The position numbers and the translations under genes are program-made. From assembly GCA_040384445.1 (NCBI GenBank), contig JAZKJG010000002.1:160823-224822 (forward strand): a stretch of DNA of 64,000 nt. The letters are read 5' to 3'. Numbering within the stretch: the first letter of the stretch is position 1; each line of letters opens with the position of its first letter. The stretch is from Patescibacteria group bacterium (lineage in GTDB: Bacteria > Patescibacteriota > Minisyncoccia > Phycocordibacterales > CAIZLB01). Of this stretch, positions 3,330-43,502 are shown piece by piece. The notes beneath the pieces were generated by a model. It saw only the letters and a list, made by a program, of their open reading frames with translations. It was not told the DNA's origin and did not search any database.

Positions 3330-5075
3330 ATGAAAAATACATTCAAAGCAGCAATCTTCGCTCTTGCCCTTACAGTTACTGTAGGAGCATCAGCGCAAGG
3401 TTACATGTTCAATACAAACCTAAAGCTAGGAGCACGAGGAGCTGATGTTACAGCACTTCAATCTGCACTAGTTGCTGGTGGTTACCTTTCAGTAACTCCA
3501 ACAGGTTATTTCGGACAACTTACAAAGCGAGCAGTTCAGGACTTCCAAAGAGCTAACGGAATTACTCCAGTTTCTGGATTTTTCGGACCTCTTACACGAG
3601 CAGTTATGAACGCAGGAGCACCAACAACTCCTACAACTCCAGCAGCATGTCCAATTGGATACGTTTGCCAGCCTACATCAACTGGTGGTTCAACATCAGG
3701 AAGTGAAGGATTTGCAGAAGTTCGAGTAGCAGTAACTCCAACAAACAATCCAAATGTACAATTCAGTACAGATGTTCCTGTTTATGGAATTGAGTTCCGA
3801 GCAAAGCAGTCTGATATTACAGTTGAAAGAGTTAACCTACAGGTATCTGTAACTAACGCAGGTTCAGAAGAGAACCCTTCAACACTTATCAACACTGTTA
3901 TTGTTAAGGACGGATCAACTGTTCTACAAACAATCCCAGTTTCTTCAGCTACTTTCTCAAAGGTCACAACTAACGGTGTAACAACTTACTACCTACAAGT
4001 TGCTGGTCTAGGATTCAGAGTTGCTAAAGATACTGCTAAGGACCTTACATTCTCATTTAACACTAACTCAATCGATACAGATCGAACAGTTGCTGTTACA
4101 GTTTATGGAGGAGCTACAGGACAGGGAATTCGAGTTGTGGACGGACGAGGTATCAGTAACTACAATGGTCTAGGAGATGTGCGAACACACACTTTCAAGA
4201 AACCAGGTACATCTACTCTTACAGCTAAGGCAGACGCAACAACACTTTACGCTAACAACTACCGAGTTAACGTTAACGGAAATGGAGCAGAAAAAGTTCT
4301 TTCTTCAACATTCGCTGTTAAATCAGAAACAGGTTCTTCAAAGCTTAACAGTGTAACAGTAGCAGTTACTGCTTCTGGAACATTGCCTTCAAACGTTTAC
4401 CTATACGATGGATCAACTATCGTTGATGCTCGATCAGGATCAACTTCAGTTACATTTGATCTAAGTAACTCAAACATTGTTGTTTCAGCAGATACTACTA
4501 AGACTTTCTCAGTTAAAGTAGATATGCCTTCAAACACAGCAACTGGAACAGTTATCTTAACTCAAGTTACTGCAGTTTCTTATGAGAAACCAAATGGTTC
4601 ATCAGCAACTATTTCAGGTCTATCAATCGCAGGTCCTTATAACTACTTTGCTCCAATTGTTGCAAAGTTCAGTAAAGTTTCATCATCAGTAAGTACAGTA
4701 ACTAACGACGGTATCGATACTGCAGTTGTTGCTAACTTCCGACTTGGAATTATGGCTGACGGTGGAGATCTATCAACATCTACATTCGCAGTTATCGGAA
4801 TCAAGAACATCTCTACAGGAGTAGTTATCGCTACTTCATCAGTGGTTGGAGTTCCTTCAGAAAGTGGTCTTTCATTGTTTGCAGACGGAGCAACAAAATA
4901 TGTTGACTTCTCTAAGACATTCGCATCATCATCATTCTCAATCGGAACTACAAACACAGTTCGAGCATTCATCGAGTCTGTAGCATGGAAAGCAGCCACA
5001 AACGGTACTTTCGCTACATCAACACGAGGATTCGAAGCTCTTGATAGTGAAGGAACAGCTTCATTCAGTAGATAG
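3330..5075 (+). CDS. secreted Ser/Thr-rich surface protein with N-terminal peptidoglycan-binding (PG_binding_1-like) domain
   Basis: Signal peptide (MKNTFKAAIFALALTVTVGASAQG). The PG-binding-like motif is GARGADVTALQSALVAGGYL...FQRANGITPVSGFFGPLTRAV. A long beta-rich S/T/V/N-rich region follows. It is a paralog of the C-terminal domains of the 55950 gene. Confidence 0.6.
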   Translation: MKNTFKAAIFALALTVTVGASAQGYMFNTNLKLGARGADVTALQSALVAGGYLSVTPTGYFGQLTKRAVQDFQRANGITPVSGFFGPLTRAVMNAGAPTTPTTPAACPIGYVCQPTSTGGSTSGSEGFAEVRVAVTPTNNPNVQFSTDVPVYGIEFRAKQSDITVERVNLQVSVTNAGSEENPSTLINTVIVKDGSTVLQTIPVSSATFSKVTTNGVTTYYLQVAGLGFRVAKDTAKDLTFSFNTNSIDTDRTVAVTVYGGATGQGIRVVDGRGISNYNGLGDVRTHTFKKPGTSTLTAKADATTLYANNYRVNVNGNGAEKVLSSTFAVKSETGSSKLNSVTVAVTASGTLPSNVYLYDGSTIVDARSGSTSVTFDLSNSNIVVSADTTKTFSVKVDMPSNTATGTVILTQVTAVSYEKPNGSSATISGLSIAGPYNYFAPIVAKFSKVSSSVSTVTNDGIDTAVVANFRLGIMADGGDLSTSTFAVIGIKNISTGVVIATSSVVGVPSESGLSLFADGATKYVDFSKTFASSSFSIGTTNTVRAFIESVAWKAATNGTFATSTRGFEALDSEGTASFSR

Positions 5076-5358: not shown

Positions 5359-5958
5359 ATGAAAGAAGATCATACACATATCTCACATATGAACGACTCC
5401 TACAAAGATATATGGTCTATTTCAGAAACAGATTTTAAAAAGCTCTTTGAACAGATATATTACAAATACATCGATTCACTGTATAGATTTGCTTACTTTA
5501 GACTTAGTGATGCAGAAAAGGCTACAGACCTGGTCCAGGATGTTTTCATCAAATACTTTGCATACTTACAGAAGTTAAGAAACAATCCAAAGGAGGAGAA
5601 TAGAGTTGATCTGAATCACAGAGCAATCCTGTTTCAATCTCTTCGAAATGCTGTTGTAGACCAATACAGACTAAAAAAGAACTACTCACTAGATGCGCTT
5701 ATAGATGAAGAGGGTGCTGACGACCTACTTGCTTCAGATGAAGATATTACATCATCAACTGAAACAGATATTAACTTTAAAGAATTAACTAAACATATAG
5801 TTAAGCTAAAGCCAGGTCAGCAGGAACTTATCTATATGAGATATTTTGAAGGTTTGTCAGTCACGGAAATTTCTCTTGCTCTAAACGAGAGGGAAAACAC
5901 TGTCTCGGTAAAACTGCACAGAATTGCAGAAGTGTTAAAAAAAGCTATGAATTCGTAA
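5359..5958 (+). CDS. RNA polymerase sigma-70 family factor, ECF-like
   Basis: Region-2-like segment (ATDLVQDVFIKYFAYL) and region 4 HTH (LKPGQQELIYMRYFEGLSVTEISLALNERENTVSVKLHRI). The 199 aa size is typical of group-4 sigma factors. Confidence 0.75.
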   Translation: MKEDHTHISHMNDSYKDIWSISETDFKKLFEQIYYKYIDSLYRFAYFRLSDAEKATDLVQDVFIKYFAYLQKLRNNPKEENRVDLNHRAILFQSLRNAVVDQYRLKKNYSLDALIDEEGADDLLASDEDITSSTETDINFKELTKHIVKLKPGQQELIYMRYFEGLSVTEISLALNERENTVSVKLHRIAEVLKKAMNS

Positions 5959-5986
5959 TATATCCGTTTAAAAATTTATCCACCAA

Positions 5987-6847
5987 ATGTTACAAGACAC
6001 TAACAACATCATTCATACACTGCAGAAGATGAGACTAAAAAAGTCTGTGTCTTTGGATGTTGGTAAAAAGGCTTCAATCCTTAACTCTGTATTTGAACAA
6101 CCTGCAAGCTTAGTGTCTTCACCTCTTAGACCAAAATATACAACAAACATCCCATCACCATATTTTGTGATGTTCTCACGATACGTACTACCGGTATTTG
6201 TCCTATTTTTTGTTGGACGAGTATTTGGAGACGGTTTGGTTGAAAGAGCTCAGTTGGCTATTGGAGATTTTAATCAAGTAAAATCAGAGATTGCACTACA
6301 GAACTCACTTACAGAAACTAAGAAAGATATTGTTGCACTAAAGACTTTTGCTCTTGCAGACGTATCTTCAGATAAAAAAGACTTAACTGACAAGGTGACA
6401 AGTGGTTCTCGACAAATTAGAAACCAAGTTGCTTCTCTTGTAAAAGAAAATAAGATTACAGAGGCAAAAGAGATTGTGCTTACACTAGAGACTGCTCTTA
6501 AGGCTGATGAGCTGTATAAAGTTGCTACTTCAGTAAGTGATGAGGTGATGGAGACTACGGACCTAAGACTTGAACTTGAACGAAAAGAGACTGAGGTATC
6601 AGTTCTAGAGGCTTCATCTTCAGCTACAACAACAGTTAAAGGTATTCAAGATCGATTAACAGAAGACAAGAAGGAATTGTCTGATATCGAATCTACAGCT
6701 TCAACAACTGAAATGCTTGCAGAGGCACAAAAATTCCTTTTGAAATCAGAAGAATATGTACAGGCAGGGAATGTTGAAAACGCTATTATATCACTCCAAG
6801 CGCATGATCGTATAGTTGCAGAAATAAAGCTAATACTGTTACCATAG
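5987..6847 (+). CDS. putative anti-sigma factor (short cytoplasmic N-domain, one TM, extracytoplasmic coiled-coil region)
   Basis: Lies immediately downstream of the ECF sigma gene. It has ~60 aa N-terminal, a TM helix (YFVMFSRYVLPVFVLFFVGRVF) and a K/E-rich coiled-coil C-terminus. No family motif was recognised; the assignment rests on context. Confidence 0.35.
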   Translation: MLQDTNNIIHTLQKMRLKKSVSLDVGKKASILNSVFEQPASLVSSPLRPKYTTNIPSPYFVMFSRYVLPVFVLFFVGRVFGDGLVERAQLAIGDFNQVKSEIALQNSLTETKKDIVALKTFALADVSSDKKDLTDKVTSGSRQIRNQVASLVKENKITEAKEIVLTLETALKADELYKVATSVSDEVMETTDLRLELERKETEVSVLEASSSATTTVKGIQDRLTEDKKELSDIESTASTTEMLAEAQKFLLKSEEYVQAGNVENAIISLQAHDRIVAEIKLILLP

Positions 6848-6851
6848 GGTA

Positions 6852-7100
6852 ATGGCATTCTTTAAAGATTTCATCACAAAACAATTAGTCAAGAAACAAC
6901 TCAAGGGTGTACCTGAGGATCAGCAACAAAAAATTATGGGCCTTATAGAAAAGGATCCAGAGTTTTTTAAAGTGATTGGTGAAAAAATACAAGAGGAAAT
7001 TAAAAAAGGGAAAGGGCAAATGGAAGCAACTATGATTGTTATGAAAGAACATCGAGAAAAGTTATCAAAGCTTTTAGGTGAGTCTGGATTTACAAAATAG
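6852..7100 (+). CDS. small hypothetical protein (82 aa, K/E-rich)
   Basis: ORF only, 4 nt after the stop of the preceding gene. No recognisable motif. Confidence 0.35.
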   Translation: MAFFKDFITKQLVKKQLKGVPEDQQQKIMGLIEKDPEFFKVIGEKIQEEIKKGKGQMEATMIVMKEHREKLSKLLGESGFTK

Positions 7101-7174: not shown

Positions 7175-7855
7175 ATGCTTAAGTTCACTAACGTTACGAA
7201 GCTGTATCACACAGGTGATACTGCTTTAAAAGATATTAATATTCACATCAGACCAAAAGAATTTGTTTCTATTGTTGGTCAGTCTGGTGCTGGAAAGACA
7301 ACACTACTAAAACTTGTGTTAGGAGAAGAATCTCCAACAGAAGGTGAGGTTATTTTTGAGGAGATGAATATTCATCAACTTAAAAGAAAACACATGAACA
7401 TGTATCGACGTCGAGTGGGTACGGTGTTTCAAGATTTTCGACTATTACCTGACAAGACAGCATATGAAAATGTGGCCTTCGCAATGGAGGCAGCGGGGCG
7501 AGCAGATTTTGAAATTGAATCTGATGTGCCACATGCACTCGATCTCGTTGGGCTGCGACATAAGGCGCACAGTTTTCCAGATCAATTGTCTGGAGGAGAG
7601 AAACAAAGAGTTGCAATTGCACGAGCAATTGTGAATCAGCCAGAGATGATTATTGCGGATGAGCCAACTGGAAACCTCGATCCTGTAAACACATACGAGA
7701 TTATTCAACTTCTTAAGAAGATCAACGATTTAGGAACAACAATTATTTTAACAACGCATAACGTTGGGGTGATTGATAACCTTGGCCGAAGAGTTATTAC
7801 AATTAAAGATGGAAAAGTTGCTCTCGATAGTATCGAAGGTAAATATATTTTATAA
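7175..7855 (+). CDS. ftsE: cell-division ABC transporter ATP-binding protein FtsE
   Basis: Walker A (GQSGAGKTT), ABC signature (LSGGEKQRVAIARA) and Walker B (IIADEPTGNLD). 226 aa, directly followed by ftsX. Confidence 0.85.
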   Translation: MLKFTNVTKLYHTGDTALKDINIHIRPKEFVSIVGQSGAGKTTLLKLVLGEESPTEGEVIFEEMNIHQLKRKHMNMYRRRVGTVFQDFRLLPDKTAYENVAFAMEAAGRADFEIESDVPHALDLVGLRHKAHSFPDQLSGGEKQRVAIARAIVNQPEMIIADEPTGNLDPVNTYEIIQLLKKINDLGTTIILTTHNVGVIDNLGRRVITIKDGKVALDSIEGKYIL

Positions 7856-7873
7856 TCTAATCTACTACATATA

Positions 7874-8797
7874 ATGATCATTACGAAACTTAGACGAACA
7901 ATAAAATCGGGAGCAATTAGTTTTTGGCGAAACAGTTCAGTTTCGCTTGCCTCTGTACTTATCATGACAGTGACGCTTACAGTTATTTCCATGATACTTT
8001 TTTTTGGTGTAGTGATGTCTTCTACGCTTGAAACAATTAAGAGTAAAGTAGATATTAACGTATATTTTGTAAAAGGAGCAGAGGAAGAAGAAATGATTGC
8101 ACTGTCTGAGAGTTTGAAACAAATGCCAGAGATTGCGTCTGTTGAATATGTTTCTAGAGAGCAAGCATATGCAACTTTTAGAGAGAGACATAAAGACGAA
8201 GAGGCAACACTGCAGGCATTGGATGAGATTGGAGAAAATCCACTCCCTGCAAGTTTAAATATTAAAGCTAAAGATCCTTCACAATATGATGCGATTGTAG
8301 AAGTTTTGAAAAATAAAGAAATCACAACAAATGATAATGGAATTGTTGAAAAGATTAACTATACAAAAAACAAGCAAGCAATTGACGCGATTACACGAAT
8401 CATTAACGCTTCAAACAAGTTAGGATTCTTGATTGCAATATTCTTCGCCGCAGTTTCAATTCTTATTACATTTAACACAGTTCGACTCGCAATCTATATT
8501 TTCCGAGAAGAAATTTCAGTAATGAGATTGGTGGGAGCAAGTGAGACATATATTCGAGGACCATTTGTTACTGTTGGAATTTTGTACGGTATTGTATCAG
8601 CTATTGTCACGGTGCTGCTCATGATACCACTTACGAATTCACTTGGTGAATGGACTGATAAGTTGGGAACAGGCATGAACTTGTTTGCATACTATCAAGA
8701 TCATCTTGTTATAATTATAGTAAGTTTACTGGTCGCAGGATCAACACTTGGAGCAATATCAAGTTTCTTGGCAATCAGAAGGTATCTAAAAGTATAA
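7874..8797 (+). CDS. ftsX: cell-division permease FtsX
   Basis: 307 aa. An N-terminal TM, a large periplasmic-type loop and three C-terminal TM helices. Adjacent to ftsE. Confidence 0.8.
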   Translation: MIITKLRRTIKSGAISFWRNSSVSLASVLIMTVTLTVISMILFFGVVMSSTLETIKSKVDINVYFVKGAEEEEMIALSESLKQMPEIASVEYVSREQAYATFRERHKDEEATLQALDEIGENPLPASLNIKAKDPSQYDAIVEVLKNKEITTNDNGIVEKINYTKNKQAIDAITRIINASNKLGFLIAIFFAAVSILITFNTVRLAIYIFREEISVMRLVGASETYIRGPFVTVGILYGIVSAIVTVLLMIPLTNSLGEWTDKLGTGMNLFAYYQDHLVIIIVSLLVAGSTLGAISSFLAIRRYLKV

Positions 8798-8803
8798 ATA
8801 AAA

Positions 8804-8842
8804 AGAGACCCTCCGCGATGAAGCGAGAGGGTCTTTTGTTTT
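8804..8842. terminator. bidirectional terminator AGAGACCCTC-...-GAGGGTCTCT flanked by A-run and T-run
   Basis: Lies between the convergent ftsX (+) and the lipoprotein gene (-). 10-bp stem with runs on both sides. Confidence 0.65.
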
Positions 8843-8859
8843 GATTCTTGTGGGCAATG

Positions 8860-9294
8860 TTAGTTGCCCCAGCGTTGGCGCCATTGGTCGTAGCCAATGG
8901 AATTGCGGCCGGGAGGGACGACTCCTTGACTGTAGGACTGATTAAAGTCCCGGTAGTTAGGATTCCGCATCCGAGGGTCCTGTTGAGGAGGGCCACCGTA
9001 GTAGCCACCTCCGTACTGAGGGTAACCAGGGTTACCGCCGTACATTGGAGGACGTGGCATCGGCCGAGGTTGCATTTGGGGAGGATAACCTCCACCGTAT
9101 TGCGGTCCTTGAGGACGCATTTGGGGAGGGTAACCACCACCATACTGAGGTCCTTGTGGATGGCGCATCTGAGGAGGAGGATAACCTCCGCCGCCGCCAT
9201 AATTGCCACCAGCGTGGGGTTGGTAGGTGATTCCACAGGAGGTGAGGGACACGGCAGCGAGTGCCAGAACCAACATTGTAAGGAGCTTTTTCAT
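8860..9294 (-). CDS. lipoprotein with Gly/Pro/Tyr/Gln-rich tandem repeats (YGGGYPPQMRPQGPQ)
   Basis: Lipoprotein signal with lipobox (MKKLLTMLVLALAAVSLTSC). Repeated GGGYPPQM(R/Q)P(Q)GPQY units. Locally GC-rich, driven by GGN/CCN codons. The long + strand ORF 8848-9312 is its antisense artefact. Confidence 0.6.
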   Translation of the reverse strand: MKKLLTMLVLALAAVSLTSCGITYQPHAGGNYGGGGGYPPPQMRHPQGPQYGGGYPPQMRPQGPQYGGGYPPQMQPRPMPRPPMYGGNPGYPQYGGGYYGGPPQQDPRMRNPNYRDFNQSYSQGVVPPGRNSIGYDQWRQRWGN

Positions 9295-9471
9295 GATTTC
9301 AGAATGGGTTGAAACGAGGGATTGTTACGCAGGAACTCTTCCTTTGTATGTGTATATTATACCATATCCAGTATAAAAAAGCAAGTACCAATAAAAGCCA
9401 AGTAATATAAGCCTAAATGTTCTATTGGAGTAGGAAAACTCATATTCTACATGATATACTTGTATATTATG

Positions 9472-10524
9472 ACTCAACAAACACTGCACGATACAATACA
9501 AAAGATTTTCACTGAAAAGCGAGGAATACTTGCCGCTGATGAAAGCGTGGCTTCTATTCATAAGCGTTTTGAGGCTTTGCAGGTTCCTCAAAATGAGTCT
9601 AACCGACTGGCCTACAGAACCCTCCTTATTGGTACTCCTAACCTAAGCGAAAAGATTAGTGGTGTGATTTTCCACGATGAGACATTTCGGCAAAAGATCG
9701 ATGGTAAGACATTTGCAGAATACTGTACTGAAAACAACATAGTTCCAGGTATAAAAGTGGATAAAGGACTTATGGATTTGCCTAACTTTCCAGGAGAAAA
9801 ACTAACTCTAGGAATCGACGGTTTGAAAGAAAGAATGGAGGAGTACTACGCTCTCGGTGCACGTTTTTGTAAATGGAGAGCGGTTGTTGATGTACACGGA
9901 TCAACAGAAGAAGGTATTGCAGCAAACATGAGAAATCTTGCCTTGTATGCATCTATTGCACAGCAAGCAGGAATTGTACCTATGGTAGAGCCTGAAGTGT
10001 TATATGACGGTACACACCTTATTCATGAGACTCGAGATGTGATGACAAAAACACTTACTCATTTGTTCGGAGAGTTGGCGTTGTATAGAGTAGATATGAC
10101 TGGTCTTATCTTGAAAACCTCAATGGTACTTCCAGGACTTAAGAGTGGTGAAGAAGTTGAAAATTCAGAAGTTGCAAAAGAAACAGCATTAGTACTTCGA
10201 ACATGTGTGCCAAAAAATATTGGAGGTATTGTATTTTTATCTGGTGGACAAACTCCAATCCAGGCTACAGAAAATCTTTCTAAAATAATGCAGCAAGGCC
10301 CATATGATTTTCCGATGACATATTCATATTCACGAGCTATCCAGGATCCTGTACTTCATTATTTTGCAAAACATTTACAAGAAGATTATGCGCGTGAAGC
10401 ACGAGTGATACTTCTTGATCGTCTTGCAATGAATACTCTTGCACTGAACGGGGAATATGTAGCTGCAAATGAAACTGGAATTTCTGCACATGCTGATACA
10501 GTGACGCACAGTCAGGATCTATAA
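9472..10524 (+). CDS. fba: fructose-bisphosphate aldolase, class I
   Basis: RGILAADES, GIKVDKG and the LEGT-like core are typical of class-I (Schiff-base) FBA. The likely start is MTQQTL at 9472 (ORF from 9451). Confidence 0.8.
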   Translation, partial: TQQTLHDTIQKIFTEKRGILAADESVASIHKRFEALQVPQNESNRLAYRTLLIGTPNLSEKISGVIFHDETFRQKIDGKTFAEYCTENNIVPGIKVDKGLMDLPNFPGEKLTLGIDGLKERMEEYYALGARFCKWRAVVDVHGSTEEGIAANMRNLALYASIAQQAGIVPMVEPEVLYDGTHLIHETRDVMTKTLTHLFGELALYRVDMTGLILKTSMVLPGLKSGEEVENSEVAKETALVLRTCVPKNIGGIVFLSGGQTPIQATENLSKIMQQGPYDFPMTYSYSRAIQDPVLHYFAKHLQEDYAREARVILLDRLAMNTLALNGEYVAANETGISAHADTVTHSQDL

Positions 10525-14212: not shown

Positions 14213-14247
14213 CCGCCACCAACCCTCCTGGGATGGTGGCGGTTTCT
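14213..14247 (+). terminator. hairpin CCGCCACC-(14 nt)-GGTGGCGG + TTTCTT
   Basis: 8-bp GC stem 10 nt after the stop of the 13637 gene. The tail is T-rich. Confidence 0.45.
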
Positions 14248-14271
14248 TCATTCACAAGCTATACTAAACCC

Positions 14272-14547
14272 ATGGAACAAACCACCCTCGAACATGCAAA
14301 TACATTCTTCTACATCACCTCAATCGCGGTATTTATCCTCATAATCATCCTTTTAGTGGTCCTATATGGAGTCTACCGAGCCTCAAAGTTCGTTAAGCAC
14401 ACTATGGACCGAGTTGAAACACTGATAGACAAGGCAGGGGATTCGGCCGAGGAAAATGGGGCAGCCAAGAAGGTTATCCCATATGTACTCCCAATCCTTG
14501 GCTTTTTCTTCAACAAGAAGAAAAGCTCGACAAGAAAGAAAATGTGA
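14272..14547 (+). CDS. small membrane protein (one TM, basic C-terminus)
   Basis: ORF 14233-14547. The likely start is MEQTTLEH at 14272, after the terminator hairpin. Confidence 0.3.
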   Translation: MEQTTLEHANTFFYITSIAVFILIIILLVVLYGVYRASKFVKHTMDRVETLIDKAGDSAEENGAAKKVIPYVLPILGFFFNKKKSSTRKKM

Positions 14548-20747: not shown

Positions 20748-21872
20748 GTGGCTAAAACACCATTTCAAAAAGATATACATATATTTCTAACAACACTGAT
20801 CGAGAAGGCGATCGCCATGAATGCTTCAGATATTCATATTGATCCTAAGGATAGTTTTGTTCAAATTCGTTTTAGAATTTCTGGAATACTTCATGAAAGT
20901 GGAAGATTGGAATTAGAATATTTGGATTTGTGTATTGGGAAGATAAAAGTTCTGGCTGAACTTCGCTCAGATGTTCATGATAAATCTCAAGATGGAAGAT
21001 TTTACTATATTTCAAATGTAACAGGTGAGCGTATTGATATACGTGTTTCTATAGCACCAACTTTTTATGGTGAAAATTGTGTGATGCGGCTGCTTCGACC
21101 TGAATTGTTGCGGTATCGAACATTTGCGGAACTTGGTATGACAATCGATCAAGTACACAGGTACACTACCTCACTTAAAAAAAGTTCAGGACTAATTATT
21201 GTGGCGGGGCCAACCGGATCTGGGAAAACAAGTACGCTATATACAACGCTGAGGTATCTCGCAAAAGGAGTTGATTCAAGTCATGCATTTTCAGACGAAA
21301 TAGATACTGAGCGAAATATTGTCACGATAGAAGATCCTGTTGAATCTGCAATTCCACGAATTAGACAAATTCAAATACATCCCGATAAAGGCTTTGGATT
21401 TAAGGAGGCGCTCAAAGGAATTTTAAGACAAGATCCAGATGTAATTATGATTGGTGAGATTCGCGATAAAGAAACTGCTCTCGCTGCGATTCAAACTGCA
21501 CTTACTGGTCATCTAGTTCTTGCTTCTATTCATGCTCCAAATGCAGCGTCAATTATTCCAAGACTTATCGACATGGGTATAGAACCATACATGCTTTCAT
21601 CTTCAATTTCTATGATATTGAGTCAGCGACTGATTCGTATGTTTGATTACTCACTTGGATTATATGGAGAACGAAAGGGGGTATTTGAAATAGTTCCGGT
21701 AGATACTGAAATGCGTGAGATGATTCATACAAAAAAGACTCCATATGAGATTGAACAATATTTATCGAAAACAGGTCACACCCTTCTTCGTGATGCATGT
21801 GCAGATATGTATATTCGACATGTAACAACTGAAGAAGAAATTAATCGCATAACACTTGATATATACTCATGA
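20748..21872 (+). CDS. pilB: type IV pilus/type II secretion assembly ATPase (GspE/PilB family, lacks N-terminal domain)
   Basis: Walker A (GPTGSGKTST), Asp box, Walker B and His box region. 374 aa. Confidence 0.75.
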   Translation: MAKTPFQKDIHIFLTTLIEKAIAMNASDIHIDPKDSFVQIRFRISGILHESGRLELEYLDLCIGKIKVLAELRSDVHDKSQDGRFYYISNVTGERIDIRVSIAPTFYGENCVMRLLRPELLRYRTFAELGMTIDQVHRYTTSLKKSSGLIIVAGPTGSGKTSTLYTTLRYLAKGVDSSHAFSDEIDTERNIVTIEDPVESAIPRIRQIQIHPDKGFGFKEALKGILRQDPDVIMIGEIRDKETALAAIQTALTGHLVLASIHAPNAASIIPRLIDMGIEPYMLSSSISMILSQRLIRMFDYSLGLYGERKGVFEIVPVDTEMREMIHTKKTPYEIEQYLSKTGHTLLRDACADMYIRHVTTEEEINRITLDIYS

Positions 21873-22915
21873 AATTAAAAAACAAAGAAGCCAGATCATT
21901 ATGGTACAAGAAAATATTTTTCTATTTGAAATCAGGACAGTCACTTCCTGAGTCGGTACGAACTGCAGCGTTAGATGCTGACAGCTTGTATATCTATGAA
22001 GAATTGATTGATGGTTCGAGGTTTTCAGATGTATGTGAGTTGCCAGAATTAAAAAATACATTCTCCCAAACAGAAGTGTCTTTGCTCCGAGTTGCAGAAC
22101 AAACAGGATCAATGCAATTCGTATGTGGAATTCTGTCTCAAATGTTGAAAGAACAATATGCGCAAGTGCAAAAACTTATTGCTGCACTTATATATCCTGT
22201 ACTGGTGCTTATCATGGCGTGTGGATTGCTGCTCATGATTCTTGTAGGAATTGTTCCAAAAATTGGTCCATTATTTTCTTCAATGAGTACCGTTCCATTT
22301 GCTACACGAATTCTTATTGCAGCAAGTAATCATGTTATATCTTTCTGGTATATCGATATTTGTGTTGGAATAGTTTTGTTGTGTGTGCTGATATATATGA
22401 AAAGAAAAACAACTTATTTTTCATATATTAGTCGGTGGATACAATATATTGCAATCAGAGCACCATATGTACGAGAAGTGTATTTATATTGGTATATCGA
22501 ACGATGGGTGCAAGTTGTTCATATCTCGTTACAGAGTCATGTGTCCTTACTTCAGTCACTTCAGTTTGCACATGAATCTGTTGAAAATCCATATATCCAA
22601 AAAGAGTTTTCAAAAGTAACAGAAGGGGTTCGGGTAGGTCAAACATGTGCCGATTCGCTTGGGCTCGTTGCTCCATTTCTAAAGCAAAAATTAAAAGACT
22701 GGATATCAGTTATTGCATCAGGAGAAAAAACTGGAACACTTCAAGAAGTTTTTGGTGTGAGCAGGGAACATATTGCAGAAAATCTTAAAGATGCATTTGA
22801 TAGGGCACAAAAAATAATTGAACCTATGCTTATTGTATTGGTTGGAATTATGGTTTTGTGTATTTGCTTGGCAATCATTTTGCCTATGTATCAATTAACT
22901 CAATCAGTACAATAA
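21869..22915 (+). CDS. pilC: type IV pilus platform protein (GspF/PilC family)
   Basis: 348 aa polytopic membrane protein. The start overlaps the pilB stop (ATGA). Architecture typical of T2SS-F. Confidence 0.7.
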   Translation: MKLKNKEARSLWYKKIFFYLKSGQSLPESVRTAALDADSLYIYEELIDGSRFSDVCELPELKNTFSQTEVSLLRVAEQTGSMQFVCGILSQMLKEQYAQVQKLIAALIYPVLVLIMACGLLLMILVGIVPKIGPLFSSMSTVPFATRILIAASNHVISFWYIDICVGIVLLCVLIYMKRKTTYFSYISRWIQYIAIRAPYVREVYLYWYIERWVQVVHISLQSHVSLLQSLQFAHESVENPYIQKEFSKVTEGVRVGQTCADSLGLVAPFLKQKLKDWISVIASGEKTGTLQEVFGVSREHIAENLKDAFDRAQKIIEPMLIVLVGIMVLCICLAIILPMYQLTQSVQ

Positions 22916-22916
22916 T

Positions 22917-24077
22917 ATGCATACACAAAAAGGATTTAGTTTAATAGAAGTAATGCTTGCACTCGCGATCTCCGTGATAGTTTTTGTTGCAGTCTTTCAT
23001 TTTGCTGCAAGTATACATACATATGCAAAAAAACATACTGCAACACCTGAGAAATATGTCTCATATCAATACGGTGAACCGTATTGTGGCATGCATAAAA
23101 CGTTGCAAGATATTCATTTCGATACATCAAATCAAATACACTTCCAAGCCTATCTATCTACTTCAACTAGAATTTCAAGTATTCATCAGTTGAACGGAAA
23201 CAGATTTCTTCTGACAACTGATTCTGCATCTACTTCAGAAAGTGATATTTTTCTGTTTGATGTTGATACTCAAAATACGACAGTCACACTCATATCTTCA
23301 CTTGACGTAGGTCCAGGTATTCAAGATGCAAAACTACTAGATCAATATTTATATGTTGCAAATACGAGTGTGAATAGTCACCTTAAAACATTGTATGTTA
23401 CAGAAAATTTAATTTCAGAATTATTTAATGTAAAATTACCATCATTATCATCGAGTGCATCATTACCAAAAAAGTTGGCAATATATGGAAACACATTAAT
23501 CCTTGGATCTGAGAAAAGTAACTCTGGTCCAGAATTGTTTGTGTTTCCTATAGAAGGGGATGGAGTGGTGAGAACTCCTATATATAGTATGGAGATTGAC
23601 GGACAGGCAAATCAGCTACTTTCTAGCTATGGAAATATACTGGTTGCAAATGCTGCAGATCCAGAATTACGAGTGTATAACTCACTATTTAATATCGAGT
23701 TCACATACGATGCGCCTCTAACTCTTGGAAATGGTAAAAGTGTCTTATATAAAGATCCATATATAATCCTAGGGCGTACAGTTGGATCAGGGGAGTTAAG
23801 TCTGTTACTTCAAAAGGGTACCACAACAGAAGTGCTAAAAACGAAACGAACTTATGGAACTGTTGATCATATTCAAATGCTGGATTCAGAAACCATACTC
23901 GCAATGACAGCTAATGAAGATGCTGAGCTACAATTTTGGAATATTCCTAGTTTAGATCACGAAAAAGATATTAATATTCCAGGTAGAGTATCAGCGTACG
24001 AATGTACATCAGAAAATTTGCTATTTATTTCCACAACAATTAATACGGAACCGGTCCTCTTATGGCTAGAAATATAA
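22917..24077 (+). CDS. large prepilin-type protein (class III signal peptide + 350-aa beta-rich domain)
   Basis: MHTQKGFSLIEVMLALAISVIVFVAVF gives a G|F cleavage site and Glu5. The long C-terminal domain may be PilY1/tip-adhesin-like. Confidence 0.6.
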   Translation: MHTQKGFSLIEVMLALAISVIVFVAVFHFAASIHTYAKKHTATPEKYVSYQYGEPYCGMHKTLQDIHFDTSNQIHFQAYLSTSTRISSIHQLNGNRFLLTTDSASTSESDIFLFDVDTQNTTVTLISSLDVGPGIQDAKLLDQYLYVANTSVNSHLKTLYVTENLISELFNVKLPSLSSSASLPKKLAIYGNTLILGSEKSNSGPELFVFPIEGDGVVRTPIYSMEIDGQANQLLSSYGNILVANAADPELRVYNSLFNIEFTYDAPLTLGNGKSVLYKDPYIILGRTVGSGELSLLLQKGTTTEVLKTKRTYGTVDHIQMLDSETILAMTANEDAELQFWNIPSLDHEKDINIPGRVSAYECTSENLLFISTTINTEPVLLWLEI

Positions 24078-24547
24078 CTTATAAAAAAGGATTTACTCTT
24101 ATAGAACTTGTGCTGTACATGGGTGTATTTACCATTCTGGTGGTTGGAATTCTATATACATCAATGTATATACAGAAAGTATTACAAGATTCTGCTGTTC
24201 GATATGAAATTGACGAGATTATATACAGGCAGTTAGCATTACTTCAAAATCACATAACTCTTGCCACTCATATTGAAGTAAGCACAAGTAGTATTCGTAT
24301 GTATTCTCAAAACAGCATTGTCACACAAGAATTAAGAAGTGGTATTTTGTTTATGATATATGAATATGGCAACGGGCAAAAGAAAGAGTTTGCAATATAC
24401 CCAACTATGAAATTTTCGGAGTTTTCGTTTAGAGATAATGAGACAGGGGAGACTTTTGAGACCAAAAATCAACTGAGAGTACAGGTGGATAGAATAGGTG
24501 TGAAAGGAAAATTAATGTCCTTAGAAGAGTATTTCTACACCTATTAA
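24062..24547 (+). CDS. prepilin-type N-terminal cleavage/methylation domain protein (pilin/pseudopilin)
   Basis: MARNITYKKGFTLIELVLYMGVFTILVVGIL. 161 aa. Confidence 0.65.
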   Translation: MARNITYKKGFTLIELVLYMGVFTILVVGILYTSMYIQKVLQDSAVRYEIDEIIYRQLALLQNHITLATHIEVSTSSIRMYSQNSIVTQELRSGILFMIYEYGNGQKKEFAIYPTMKFSEFSFRDNETGETFETKNQLRVQVDRIGVKGKLMSLEEYFYTY

Positions 24548-35650: not shown

Positions 35651-36679
35651 ATGAAAACTCTTCGATTCTTGGCAGTGGTCTTAACAGCCATTGCTTTGCT
35701 GTCTTTTTTCTCTAACACATCCGAGGCTTCAGGTCTTGTGGATGTAAACTACGCCACTCTTAATATTGTCACTGCGTCAGACTCTACAGAACAACAAACA
35801 GGATTAGGGAAAACGGTCTTTGTACCGATTGAAACCTTTCTTGTTGATACTGCCCGAGTGAAAATCAGTTTTGAATTGTACCGCTCGGACAGTGTCCAGA
35901 CATACAACATGGATCGCCTGAATATTCTGAACTTCAACCCTACTTGTAGGGTTGTGCAAAACAATGATCCTGATCAGTGGATTTCAAGTATCAGCGGGTT
36001 TGTAAATTTTGCAACTGCCGGTGCTATGTATACTGACCTCAGTACGTCACCTGAAGTAAATCAAGGGATGTTCATTTGCCCCTTGGATTCCAGTGGTCAT
36101 ATAGTTGCATCCTTAGTTGGAACTCGTATCAATGATCCTAACCCTCATCTGATGAATAGTGGTGCGTACAAAGTTCACTCGAATGCCAGTATGACTGTGC
36201 ATAAAGTGAAAGTTGTAAACATGCCGCTTATTTTCAGGGATGGGGTTGGGGCACAAATCATGCGCGATCTAAAAACTTCGTATCCTAATCGCCCCCTCAG
36301 TCTGTTGTTGGATGTCAACATTATAGTCAACCTTGCACTCAATCCATACGAAGGTTGTATGTACTCACCAAGCCTTAGGCGAACATCAAGCCTTTGTTGG
36401 CTTCACTTCGACGGGAGGCTTATACCAGAAGGAGACTTCCAGCTGGCGATCACATCGCCCAACTCCGTTATTGTCCCAGCCGGCTGCTTCAGTTGGCTGG
36501 ACCTCTACCACTCTCCATCGCCCGGAGAGATCGGTACCAAGGTGAACTTGCATTCCTGCAACATCATGTCCTACGGTCCGCAGACCATCAGTCCGCCGAC
36601 CATGGGAACCAACATGGTTTCAGGAATCCAAACACCTCATGCGAAGGGTTTCTACACCCTTCGCACTCGGATCGAATAA
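35651..36679 (+). CDS. secreted hypothetical protein with GC-rich 3' third
   Basis: Signal peptide (MKTLRFLAVVLTAIALLSFFSNTSEA). By eye the last ~320 nt (about 36360-36680) are ~55% GC, against ~36% genome-wide. A putative sigma-70 promoter (TTGACA...TATGAT) lies at 35531-35563. Confidence 0.5.
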   Translation: MKTLRFLAVVLTAIALLSFFSNTSEASGLVDVNYATLNIVTASDSTEQQTGLGKTVFVPIETFLVDTARVKISFELYRSDSVQTYNMDRLNILNFNPTCRVVQNNDPDQWISSISGFVNFATAGAMYTDLSTSPEVNQGMFICPLDSSGHIVASLVGTRINDPNPHLMNSGAYKVHSNASMTVHKVKVVNMPLIFRDGVGAQIMRDLKTSYPNRPLSLLLDVNIIVNLALNPYEGCMYSPSLRRTSSLCWLHFDGRLIPEGDFQLAITSPNSVIVPAGCFSWLDLYHSPSPGEIGTKVNLHSCNIMSYGPQTISPPTMGTNMVSGIQTPHAKGFYTLRTRIE

Positions 36680-36727
36680 TATCCGAGAATAAAAAAACCT
36701 CTCACTGCTCACGCAGGGGAGGTTTTC
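36666..36727. terminator. two tandem hairpins (CTCGGAT-8nt-ATCCGAG spanning the stop codon, then CCTCTC...GGGAGG + TTTT)
   Basis: Lies between the convergent 35651 (+) and 36745 (-) genes, with A-run and T-run flanks. Confidence 0.5.
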
Positions 36728-36744
36728 TTATTTATATTTATATA

Positions 36745-38055
36745 TTAGTTAACTTGAACTGTTGCGTACTGAGTGTTATCACCTTCATTTGACTCACTTA
36801 CAGCATTTGATGTATCTGCCATAAATGTAATTCGGTTTGTTCCTCGTGTGAGACTATCGATCTCATAGAGGATAGTTGATTCACTTCCTGATGCTAAACC
36901 ATTATCAGATCCTGGGATAAAATCTCGAGTGTATCCATTACTATCAACAAGAGAAATTTTACTTGACCAAGAGTTACTAAAGTAACCACCGTTGTTTCGA
37001 ACTCGTGCTCGAACCGCAAGCTTTTCTCCGTAATTCACATAACTTTGTGAATAGAATGATCCATTAATAACTCGTCCAACTTCAAGAGATACGATAGAAA
37101 GGTTAGGGGAATATGAGTTGTTGTTATTATATCCAGTACTGTAATTGTTATTACAGTTGTAGTTGTAACTATAGTTTCCATTATAATCACAATTATTGTA
37201 GTTATAGTTGTAATTAGTATTGTTATAGTATGTGTTAGAAATGTTTTTAATTTCTACTGCTACTGTGTTGTCACTTTCGTTTGATTCAGCAACTTGATTT
37301 TCTGTATCAAGATAAATTCGAACGATTGGAGTTCCTTGTGAAAGATCAACGCCGCTAAATCGTGCTTCGACACTATATGAACTTCCTCCAGGAATACTGT
37401 TTAGGTTGTTGAGAATTTTTACTTTATCATCGTATTCTCGAGCAGGCATTTCAACTCGCATTGAGTATGATCCAGTTGGAGAATCTTGCTCGTTGAGTAC
37501 TAGGAATCGTACTGAAATTGTATCTTCAGTAGTAAATGTGTTTCTTGCAACAAACTGACCATTTAAAATAACACCCATTGTTGAGTAACTTACTCGTAAG
37601 TTTTTTCGTCCACTCAAAACCGGAGTGGGATTGTAATATGTATATGTTGGAGTTTTTACAACTGGCTTAGCAACAGTTTTTACTGGAGCTTTAGCAGGTG
37701 CATTTTCAAGAATCACAATGTCTCCTTGAGTTGTATATATGCCGTTTAGGCCATTATCTGTAACTGGAGCGGGTTGCGCCACAGGCTGAGTTGGGGTTGT
37801 CGTCGCAATAGTCTCTGTCTTGCCTAGGGAAACAGTGGCTGATGCCAGCTGGTTTATGCCTCGAGGGATAAGTTTAAAGAGGGTAATACTTAAAAAGACC
37901 AAAATAGCGATTGCTATAATGATAACTAGAAAGCGGATGATTGTTCGTAATATTTCCATAATGTTTGTATTATATACATAATATCTATATATGTCAAGGG
38001 TTAAGAGATGTTCTAAGTATGGCAATATAGAGTATATAAAACGATTATATGGCAC
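36745..38055 (-). CDS. membrane-anchored surface protein with CARDB-like domains and Asn/Tyr-rich low-complexity linker
   Basis: N-terminal TM (FLVIIIAIAILVFLSITLF). NYNYNYNNCDYNGNYSYNYNCNNNY stretch. Two CARDB-like segments (ESNESDNTVAVEIKN; ESNEGDNTQYATVQV). Confidence 0.5.
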   Translation of the reverse strand: MPYNRFIYSILPYLEHLLTLDIYRYYVYNTNIMEILRTIIRFLVIIIAIAILVFLSITLFKLIPRGINQLASATVSLGKTETIATTTPTQPVAQPAPVTDNGLNGIYTTQGDIVILENAPAKAPVKTVAKPVVKTPTYTYYNPTPVLSGRKNLRVSYSTMGVILNGQFVARNTFTTEDTISVRFLVLNEQDSPTGSYSMRVEMPAREYDDKVKILNNLNSIPGGSSYSVEARFSGVDLSQGTPIVRIYLDTENQVAESNESDNTVAVEIKNISNTYYNNTNYNYNYNNCDYNGNYSYNYNCNNNYSTGYNNNNSYSPNLSIVSLEVGRVINGSFYSQSYVNYGEKLAVRARVRNNGGYFSNSWSSKISLVDSNGYTRDFIPGSDNGLASGSESTILYEIDSLTRGTNRITFMADTSNAVSESNEGDNTQYATVQVN

Positions 38056-42914: not shown

Positions 42915-43502
42915 TCACTGAGCGAGGGTGATTGTTTTGATCACACCGTCTCCTCCTTTGATGGAAGTGAGGTAACTCGCCTCGTACGTAGGGTTCATGA
43001 TTTGCATCGCTGCCTGAAATTCCGTGATGGTATTGTCGAGCATTGAATCATGAATAGGATGGCCGTATACACTATCGGTTTCTTTTCCGGTGGTCATCCT
43101 TTCCATGAAAGCAGAGAGATCGGGCAGTCCTGCGTCGGGAATGGTGGCGAGTACGGCTTGCATTGCGCATAGGGTACGCAATGCAGTCTCAAACTCCTCG
43201 TCCAAAGTGTTTCCTTGAAGGAATGTCTTTGAGTCAAAGAAATCTGGAGGATGCACAGTGAATCTCATGGCGGTAATGTACTCTTCCTTGTACTTTTTTA
43301 CTTCCACAAATTTGGCAGCGTATACATCGAACACTTTTTTCTTCGCTGCAGGATCAGCTTTGAATACTGCTACAGCGGTTTCGTTCTTTGAACTCTTCGT
43401 GGGCTTGTTTAGTTTCCACCAAACAAATGATGCGATCAATGCGACAGCAAGAAACATGCTGGTGAACGTGAGTCGATTAGCTTGGTCAATACTTATTTTC
43501 AT
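42915..43502 (-). CDS. membrane-anchored hypothetical protein (195 aa), GC-elevated
   Basis: N-terminal TM (FTSMFLAVALIASFVWW). The rest is soluble. ~47% GC by eye. Confidence 0.4.
   Translation of the reverse strand: MKISIDQANRLTFTSMFLAVALIASFVWWKLNKPTKSSKNETAVAVFKADPAAKKKVFDVYAAKFVEVKKYKEEYITAMRFTVHPPDFFDSKTFLQGNTLDEEFETALRTLCAMQAVLATIPDAGLPDLSAFMERMTTGKETDSVYGHPIHDSMLDNTITEFQAAMQIMNPTYEASYLTSIKGGDGVIKTITLAQ

Follow-up and report, generated by a model that had tools for sequence, protein, structure and literature searches.

A stretch of 64,000 nucleotides (nt) from a Patescibacteria group bacterium (contig JAZKJG010000002.1 of assembly GCA_040384445.1; hereafter the window) carries on its minus strand a short, GC-rich gene that converges with ftsX and appears to encode a small lipoprotein precursor. 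As a first-pass annotation of the sequence had described, the minus-strand open reading frame (ORF) at 8860..9294 translates into a 144-residue protein with the lipobox LTSC. The N-terminus reads MKKLLTMLVLALAAVSLTS up to Cys20, in the arrangement MKK-LLTMLVLALAAVS-LTS-C20, and the mature sequence continues with GITYQPH after that cysteine; CGITYQPHAGGN stands directly after the lipobox cleavage point and ahead of the first of three tandem repeat units, YGGGGGYPPPQMRHPQGPQ (amino acids (aa) 32-50), YGGGYPPQMRPQGPQ (aa 51-65) and YGGGYPPQMQPRPMPRPPM (aa 66-84). Following two degenerate units, the tail of the protein reads QDPRMRNPNYRDFNQSYSQGVVPPGRNSIGYDQWRQRWGN, and its richness in Arg, Trp, Gln, Asn and Tyr, which had also been pointed out, is evident in the sequence. 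The minus-strand product further contains the peptides NPNYR, DFNQSYSQGVVPPGR and NSIGYDQWR.

Related loci were fetched with the neighbouring FtsX protein, 34 from reference genomes and 27 from metagenomes, and belong to Patescibacteria metagenome-assembled genomes (MAGs) that carry labels such as Parcubacteria, Paceibacterota and Nomurabacteria and whose isolate names suggest a mainly freshwater origin. At each of the 26 loci with an FtsX at least 66% identical and enough downstream DNA, we observed a GC-rich lipobox ORF convergent with ftsX, 70-209 nt past the ftsX stop codon and beginning with a signal peptide that ends in [G/A/S]-Cys. Three of these loci (L008, L010 and L012) are near-duplicate, truncated or N-containing copies. 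The counts of frame, promoter and GC content at third codon positions (GC3) given below cover 23 loci. The lipobox ORF was missing at the same spot in 24 loci with at least 1,300 nt downstream and an FtsX 47-61% identical, where pyrG or other genes are found instead. Judged from these sequences, the lipoprotein family is restricted to one clade of ultra-small Patescibacteria.

Long ORFs occur on both strands of the region, as noted previously, one at 8848-9312 on the plus strand and another at 8775-9236 in a second minus-strand frame. When we compared the frames across the 23 loci, only the sense (minus-strand) frame was free of stops in all of them; that of the plus-strand ORF was open in 5 and broken by stops in 18. 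We then aligned the codons of repeat units 1 and 2 and observed that 10 of the 15 differ, with all 10 differences synonymous and none non-synonymous, whereas only about 24% of random changes would be synonymous (chance of 10 out of 10, ~6e-7). In the antisense plus-strand ORF the same units read as differing peptides. Because the sense frame is open in 23 of 23 orthologues and the units differ only synonymously, the minus-strand gene is evidently translated and its repeat peptide under purifying selection, and at the sequence level the coding strand and frame can be regarded as settled. A plus-strand gene was rejected on these same two grounds, and the plus-strand ORF is a by-product of stop-poor composition.

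Public records handle the gene differently. A 138-aa version of the lipoprotein (P0001), whose sequence cluster has one member and whose exact sequence matched no contig, begins at M7, and in strain L062 (GCA_040384025.1), which is 98.0% nucleotide-identical over 6 kb, the annotated gene is the antisense 164-aa shadow ORF (3945-4439 on the plus strand of JAWVHG010019348.1) and not the lipoprotein. Position 7 is Ile in this strain, which led us to reject M7 as the start codon and to place the translation start at M1; family members keep MK or MN at their N-terminus. Gene callers therefore disagree on both the strand and the start codon of the lipoprotein gene.

The N-terminal sequence carries the hallmarks of a bacterial lipoprotein, namely a basic n-region, a hydrophobic h-region and [LVI][ASTVI][GAS]-C within the first ~35 residues. 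A lipobox rule of the PROSITE-PS51257 type is matched by the window protein and by 19 of the 26 family members overall, and in the 26-member alignment the sole invariant columns are Met1 and Cys20, with Ser19 kept in at least 90%. NCBIfam returned only lipoprotein-signal-type matches, covering aa 1-26 at most and below cut-off, including a weak match to the LptM signal peptide. Lipidation at Cys20 is accordingly predicted, and the product has the character of a lipoprotein-type precursor whose mature part is repetitive and of low complexity. The original proposal of a genuine minus-strand gene of this type is upheld, with the lipobox conserved and the frame open throughout the orthologues.

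An earlier count of three or more repeat units was partly borne out: GGGYPPQM occurs three times, and the full 15-aa unit with PQGPQ only twice. At 9072-9160, Tandem Repeats Finder reported 2.0 copies of a 45-nt period, with 86% matches. The best self-diagonal score of the peptide repeat, 14, lies far above the 4.1 ± 0.7 (maximum 8) obtained from 2000 shuffles of the same composition. The mature chain, 125 residues including Cys20, consists of 22% Gly, 20% Pro, 13% Gln, 12% Tyr and 8% Arg, has neither Lys nor Glu, and is positively charged overall (+7). Lys is nearly absent from the family as a whole, with Arg in its place, although the genomes are AT-rich. Its 2P+G value of 0.62 falls in the range of elastomeric proteins, in which hydrated disorder is favoured over amyloid. 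The longest Gly-X-Y run is three triplets, and we accordingly discarded the label of a collagen-like protein that had been attached to it. Elsewhere in the window, the protein encoded at 36745-38055 (-) has a low-complexity stretch rich in Asn and Tyr, …NTYYNNTNYNYNYNNCDYNGNYSYNYNCNNNY…, which differs in kind from the one in the lipoprotein.

Comparison between species revealed that the parts that persist are the lipobox and a short C-terminal aromatic motif, PPGRNSIGYDQW, which is predicted to be helical. P0002, which adjoins an aldolase 93% identical to that of the window, shares with the window protein its signal peptide and 17 of the last 21 residues, and its middle is unrelated and repeat-free. 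Other members have expanded different sequences (GGPQFGPQF three times in L057, LPTYQSSGY twice in L001, QPRPGYQ in P0006 and PQYGQP in L003), and the close relatives P0007 and P0008 differ by one 11-aa repeat-unit indel. A second C-terminal subgroup has VYGNGPQSY near its C-terminus, and two aromatic residues separated by two or three others are found within the last 30 aa of 18 of the 26 members. In strain L062, the gene has the same repeat number as in the window and differs at three positions (M7I, D136E and one synonymous change), a divergence of 0.69% compared to 1.3-3.2% for the neighbouring genes. Variation in repeat number, suggested as a check by the first-pass annotation, is thus absent from the one strain-level relative available and present across the family as indels and repeat turnover. 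Collectively, these sequence comparisons indicate a fixed anchor, a C-terminal module fixed within subgroups, and a middle that keeps its composition as its sequence and length shift.

Two extremes of length were also observed. The orthologue in the closest reference genome (L001 6011-6634 (-), FtsX 85% identical) is 207 aa long and has a Gln/Arg/Glu-rich insert of ~80 residues between the lipobox and the Gly/Tyr/Pro-rich part. The positional orthologues at L007 3653-3820 (-) and L008 5995-6162 (-) are 55 aa long, have the lipobox LLQG-C, end in ...ENGW and contain almost no low complexity; a family member can thus consist of hardly more than an anchor and a tail.

We next consider the signals around the gene. 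The promoter is close to consensus, as it is in 22 of 23 orthologues. Its -10 element lies 61 nt before the lipoprotein ATG, and the transcription start was deduced from its position; on a crude consensus score the promoter is tied second among the 60 genes of the window (three at 11.0, one at 12.0). The leader folds weakly (z -1.5). Approximately half of the orthologues have a leader of ~50-70 nt with an apparent 5' hairpin (by eye) and a G-poor, C/A-rich tract, and in 10, of a leaderless type, only 8-15 nt separate the -10 box from the ATG. A Shine-Dalgarno-like motif precedes only 4 of the 60 window genes, and its lack is normal in this genome. Many genes of the window have a TATAAT-like box 6-9 nt before the ATG (for example those starting at 7175, 9469, 11354, 17785 (-) and 18752 (-)), suggesting that leaderless mRNAs are widespread in this organism. 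At the other end of the gene, folding gave -19.3 kcal/mol on the minus strand (z -4.9) and -23.9 kcal/mol on the plus strand (z -4.6), with U-runs on both strands, and so revealed a hairpin at 8803-8842 that a consensus terminator scan had missed owing to a bulge in the stem. Comparable hairpin and T-run sequences follow the orthologue stop codons, as seen by eye without folding. With its own promoter and a bidirectional terminator, the lipoprotein gene is in all likelihood a monocistronic unit (Table 1).

Table 1. Positions of the lipoprotein gene, its parts and its expression signals in the window.
Feature	Coordinates	Strand	Remarks
Coding sequence, 144 aa plus stop	8860..9294	-	Only frame without stops in 23/23 orthologues
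Signal peptide, aa 1-19, with lipobox L-T-S at its end	9238..9294	-	NCBIfam lipoprotein-signal-type matches to aa 1-22; S19 kept in at least 90% of members
Cys20 codon, predicted lipid-modified residue 1 of the mature protein	9235..9237	-	Invariant column, 26 family members
Tandem repeat units u1-u3 (YGGGYPPQM...), aa 32-84	9043..9201	-	
Degenerate units u4-u5 (YGGNPGYPQ, aa 85-93; YGGGYYGGPPQ, aa 94-104)	8983..9042	-	
Semi-conserved C-terminal module NYRDFNQSYSQGVVPPGRNSIGYDQWRQRWGN, aa 113-144	8863..8958	-	Last 21 aa 81% identical to P0002; middles unrelated
Predicted short helix YDQWRQRW, aa 135-142, with one aromatic face (Tyr, Trp, Trp)	8869..8892	-	pLDDT ~70-75
-35 element TTGCTT	9379..9384	-	17 nt upstream of -10; TTGCTT or TTGAC(A/T) with 17-nt spacing in 22/23 orthologous loci
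Extended -10 element TGgTATAAT	9356..9364	-	Perfect TATAAT in 18/23 orthologues
Inferred 5' untranslated region, ~55 nt	9295..9349	-	Small hairpin GGAAgagTTCC, then G-poor C/A-rich tract; no Shine-Dalgarno
Bidirectional intrinsic terminator common to the lipoprotein gene and convergent ftsX	8803..8842	both	Folding
Antisense shadow ORF, 154 aa, not a gene	8848..9312	+	Frame open in 5/23 orthologues

The GC-richness of the region, which the first-pass annotation had called striking, was confirmed by windowed GC, at 0.55-0.59 compared to a window mean of 0.374 (standard deviation 0.046), making this the GC-richest island in the 64 kb. Amino-acid content accounts for the first two codon positions (GC1 observed 0.67, expected 0.64; GC2 observed 0.54, expected 0.54) and leaves the third unexplained, with an observed GC3 of 0.51 against an expected 0.25 and 0.28 ± 0.07 in the other 59 genes of the window; we therefore rejected composition as the full cause. 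GC3 is raised in 21 of 23 orthologues, signal-peptide codons included. Recent horizontal transfer was likewise rejected as the cause of the island, given the conserved synteny and the same promoter type in each copy. The proportion of codons ending in C among those ending in C or T is 61% across the lipoprotein genes of the orthologue set compared to 28% in ftsX, and 64% in the window gene compared to a window mean of 30%, with rpsP at 0.63 and typA at 0.51. The strongest such preference in the window (0.68) belongs to a 581-aa secreted protein at 3330-5075 (+), which has a PG_binding_1 domain and a long Thr/Ser/Val-rich region and is a candidate for a major surface (S-layer-like) protein. Because rpsP, typA and this surface protein share the preference, translational selection in highly expressed genes is its best partial explanation, and the rpsP-like bias towards C-ending codons suggests high expression of the lipoprotein gene.

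A small class of genes with high GC3 can be recognized in the window, comprising the lipoprotein gene and the genes at 35651-36679, 14233-14547 and 42915-43502. The first of these others (+) forms a second GC-rich island, especially at 36350-36680, and encodes a 342-aa secreted hypothetical protein with a GC of 0.57 and a GC3 of 0.70-0.74 in its 3' third, overlapped by a shadow ORF at 36394-36792. The genes at 14233-14547 (+) and 42915-43502 (-) encode small membrane or secreted hypothetical proteins, with a GC3 of ~0.5 compared to the window mean of 0.28.

Structure prediction with AlphaFold2, using a 5-sequence alignment, returned a mean predicted local distance difference test score (pLDDT) of 51.6, with residues 20-125 at 39-49. 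Helices were predicted for the signal peptide and for residues 135-142 (YDQWRQRW), the latter being, at ~70-75, the sole confident segment of the mature protein; read from the sequence, Tyr135, Trp138 and Trp142 lie on one helix face with Arg flanking. At a probability of roughly 60%, we favour the reading that the locus is an independently transcribed gene for a small lipoprotein whose whole mature part is disordered, and which serves in the envelope as a disordered tether with a C-terminal binding motif. The precursor would be exported through Sec, modified with diacylglycerol at Cys20 and relieved of its signal peptide by signal peptidase II, so that 125 residues would remain, held by the lipid at the outer side of the cytoplasmic membrane in a Patescibacteria (Paceibacteria-type) cell. 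The mature chain lacks Lys, is cationic (+7), has a high content of Gly, Pro, Tyr, Gln and Arg, and is probably made in large amounts. Its Gly/Pro-rich middle, including the three YGGGYPPQM units, may act as a flexible hydrated spacer whose length and sequence turn over fast by slippage and duplication while its composition is kept. Specific function would then reside in the lipid anchor and in the C-terminal aromatic/basic motif VVPPGRNSIGYDQWRQRW, a predicted amphipathic helix that most likely docks on an envelope component, be it peptidoglycan or another glycan, an anionic polymer or the membrane interface. We infer this mechanism of tether and binding motif, and the nature of the partner, from the conserved and predicted features described above.

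Several observations weigh against this reading. The C-terminal motif is conserved within subgroups and not family-wide, with the aromatic pair in 18 of 26 members, and the 5-sequence alignment given to AlphaFold makes low pLDDT weak evidence of disorder. Part of the orthologue set was gathered with a lipobox filter, and its first pass was made by position, length and composition only. The case for high expression comes solely from codon bias and promoter consensus, and rpsP and typA do not show the broad avoidance of codons ending in A that marks the lipoprotein gene. Finally, a motif scan found neither Lgt nor LspA in the 64-kb window and 62 related loci, which total 474 kb and represent genome fractions too small for this negative to be informative.

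We also questioned whether the protein might instead form an adhesive or condensate-forming coat, in which many Tyr/Arg/Gly/Gln/Pro sticker-spacer chains self-associate or stick to a host cell and thereby attach an episymbiont. Tyr/Arg-rich low-complexity chains, and mussel foot proteins rich in Gly, Tyr, Arg, Asn and Trp, show self-associating or adhesive behaviour, and the Tyr and Arg content, lack of Lys, net charge of +7 and 2P+G of 0.62 all fit such a role, as do the probably strong expression signals and the rapid evolution between species that is typical of host-interface proteins. The composition makes the adhesion or phase separation proposed at first pass physically plausible. However, the cationic character is not conserved: the net charge is negative in 7 of the 26 members and zero in one. 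Certain orthologues are also very short, the mature part of L007 having 36 aa and almost no low-complexity region, and a chain of ~125 residues anchored in the membrane may be too short to extend beyond the wall or S-layer of a monoderm cell. On balance we consider this coat unlikely. Its more specific form, an abundant, lipid-anchored Arg/Tyr/Gly/Pro sticker-spacer chain that builds a dense brush or condensate-like adhesive layer on an ultra-small cell and touches the host, with repeats remodelled by host-driven selection and the anchor and aromatic helix fixed, is more speculative still. If true, the lipoprotein would be an extracellular equivalent, in bacteria, of the low-complexity proteins that adhere or phase-separate in eukaryotes. 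Those eukaryotic Gly/Tyr/Pro/Gln low-complexity regions include FUS-like prion-like domains, the PPQGY tails of cephalopod rhodopsins, and elastomeric and mussel foot proteins; they resemble the lipoprotein in composition, in short degenerate Tyr repeats and in a Pro and Gly content favouring hydrated disorder, but no homology was found, so that any likeness would be convergent, and the protein described here is predicted to be extracytoplasmic and lipid-anchored.

A size-variable shield of the mycoplasma Vlp/Vsa type, pairing a conserved leader with length-varying repeats against phage, predators or host defences, appears improbable. The mycoplasma Vlp, Vsa and Vsp proteins are small lipoproteins of reduced-genome bacteria with a conserved leader or N-terminus and fast-changing tandem repeats, and the family studied here is alike in having a conserved leader followed by repeats whose unit and number change fast. 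Differing repeats expanded independently by lineage, the 11-aa indel separates two close relatives, and the organism itself has a reduced genome and is probably host-associated. In contrast to the mycoplasma systems, the gene is single, at a fixed locus and outside any multigene family, with no paralogue in the 64-kb window; it has no phase-variable tract, the promoter spacer holding only a T5-6 run at a spacing fixed at 17 nt; and its repeat number is the same in the strain pair. The synonymous divergence of the repeat copies disfavours frequent slippage, and the Gly/Pro/Tyr/Gln/Arg composition and conserved C-terminal motif further set the protein apart. The defining features of a mycoplasma-type variable lipoprotein were not found (one lipobox gene in the window, a fixed 17-nt spacer, an unchanged repeat number in L062), and this identification was rejected.

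We consider it very unlikely that the lipoprotein is an accessory of the FtsEX division complex, contacting the FtsX extracellular domain or an FtsX-controlled cell-wall hydrolase. The window FtsX has an FtsX_ECD domain, and the gene directly follows ftsX in 26 of 26 loci, even where the other flank has changed (to a secreted protein in L002 and L003, and to pyrG in L006 and L012). However, the two genes are convergent, and the lipoprotein gene's own promoter and the shared terminator mean that they are not co-transcribed; more distant relatives retain ftsEX without a lipoprotein gene at that site, and adjacency within one clade may simply be inherited gene order. That the region is not this protein gene at all, being foreign GC-rich DNA, a structured RNA or a plus-strand gene at 8848-9312, is effectively excluded: the GC island, its atypical GC3 and one public record that calls the plus-strand ORF as a gene are outweighed by synteny kept across a clade whose FtsX has diverged to 66%, by the same pattern of hexamer, spacer and extended -10 in each copy, by plus-strand stops in 18 of 23 orthologues, by unit differences synonymous only in the minus-strand frame, and by the lack of an Rfam match above chance.

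Comparison with other small lipoproteins places the favoured tether reading in context. Disordered N-terminal linkers have been described for E. coli outer-membrane lipoproteins (bioRxiv 10.1101/2021.01.05.425367), and the common features are a Sec-type signal, a lipobox Cys and a disordered segment right after the anchor; here, disorder is predicted for nearly the whole mature protein, with no folded domain. A further difference from the E. coli proteins is that a presumed monoderm Patescibacterium has no Lol sorting problem. Like the small, abundant envelope lipoproteins Lpp, OsmB and LptM, the protein is a small lipoprotein from a monocistronic gene with a strong promoter, a terminator and an expression-type codon bias; a structural or spacer role in the envelope is plausible. 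Lpp itself forms a trimeric coiled coil that is joined to peptidoglycan by a C-terminal Lys. Past the signal peptide there is no sequence relation to these three proteins; Lys is missing from the mature window protein, for which disorder is predicted. An Lpp-like protein was rejected on the lack of Lys, a helix predicted only at 135-142, and no Pfam or NCBIfam match to Lpp.

Sequence searches retrieved little of the family. A word-indexed single-sequence search returned only the lipoprotein itself, and exhaustive phmmer over 1.84 billion representatives gave P0002 and P0003 as its two relatives, both of which match by a C-terminal motif, PPG(R/Q)NSIG(Y/F)xxW. The homology search proposed earlier for the repeat unit produced these two relatives, reached by way of the C-terminal motif, and no curated family. 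Profile searches with 16 and 26 members returned 5 and 4 proteins, respectively, mostly already in the profile. Pfam gave no match for the lipoprotein at E <= 10, a PDB sequence search gave nothing below E = 0.4, and Rfam on 8500-9700 gave a chance-level match only (E = 0.29, 21 bits compared to a gathering score of 55). In the literature on lipoproteins or disorder in Patescibacteria, candidate phyla radiation (CPR) bacteria and Parcubacteria, we found no paper matching the lipoprotein; one Saccharibacteria paper mentions signal peptidase II (SPII)-type signal peptides only. Synteny, by comparison, recovered 26 family loci where sequence and profile searches recover almost none, which makes the family a problem for annotation.

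Neighbouring genes of the window deserve brief mention. The class I fructose-bisphosphate aldolase gene probably starts at 9469 (MTQQ...) rather than at the first ATG at 9451: its L063 orthologue begins with MTQN, and 9469 is preceded, at a distance of 8 nt, by a -10-like box. In L028, a gap of ~600 nt without an assigned ORF (6286-6891) separates the lipoprotein and aldolase genes. Directly upstream of ftsEX, at 5359-7100 (+), an ECF sigma factor gene is followed by genes of 286 aa and 82 aa without Pfam matches, a possible anti-sigma pair. A type IV pilus-like cluster was recognized by eye at 20748-24547 (+), comprising a secretion ATPase, a platform protein and pseudopilin-like proteins with an N-terminal GFTLIE.

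Taken together, the lipoprotein is a fast-evolving surface protein of a familiar general kind and not a new type of system. It would best be filed, by sequence, as a new clade-restricted family within the small lipoproteins that have disordered or repeat ectodomains. An orphan low-complexity lipoprotein would hardly surprise a specialist, and the findings establish no new mechanism. The family nevertheless offers a clean, small case in which composition, lipid anchor and terminal motif are conserved while the sequence between is replaced. Few Patescibacteria have been cultured, and little is known of the proteins with which they build their envelope and contact hosts; a small, apparently strongly expressed and clade-specific gene of this kind is a reasonable candidate for a major envelope component of a Paceibacteria-type lineage.

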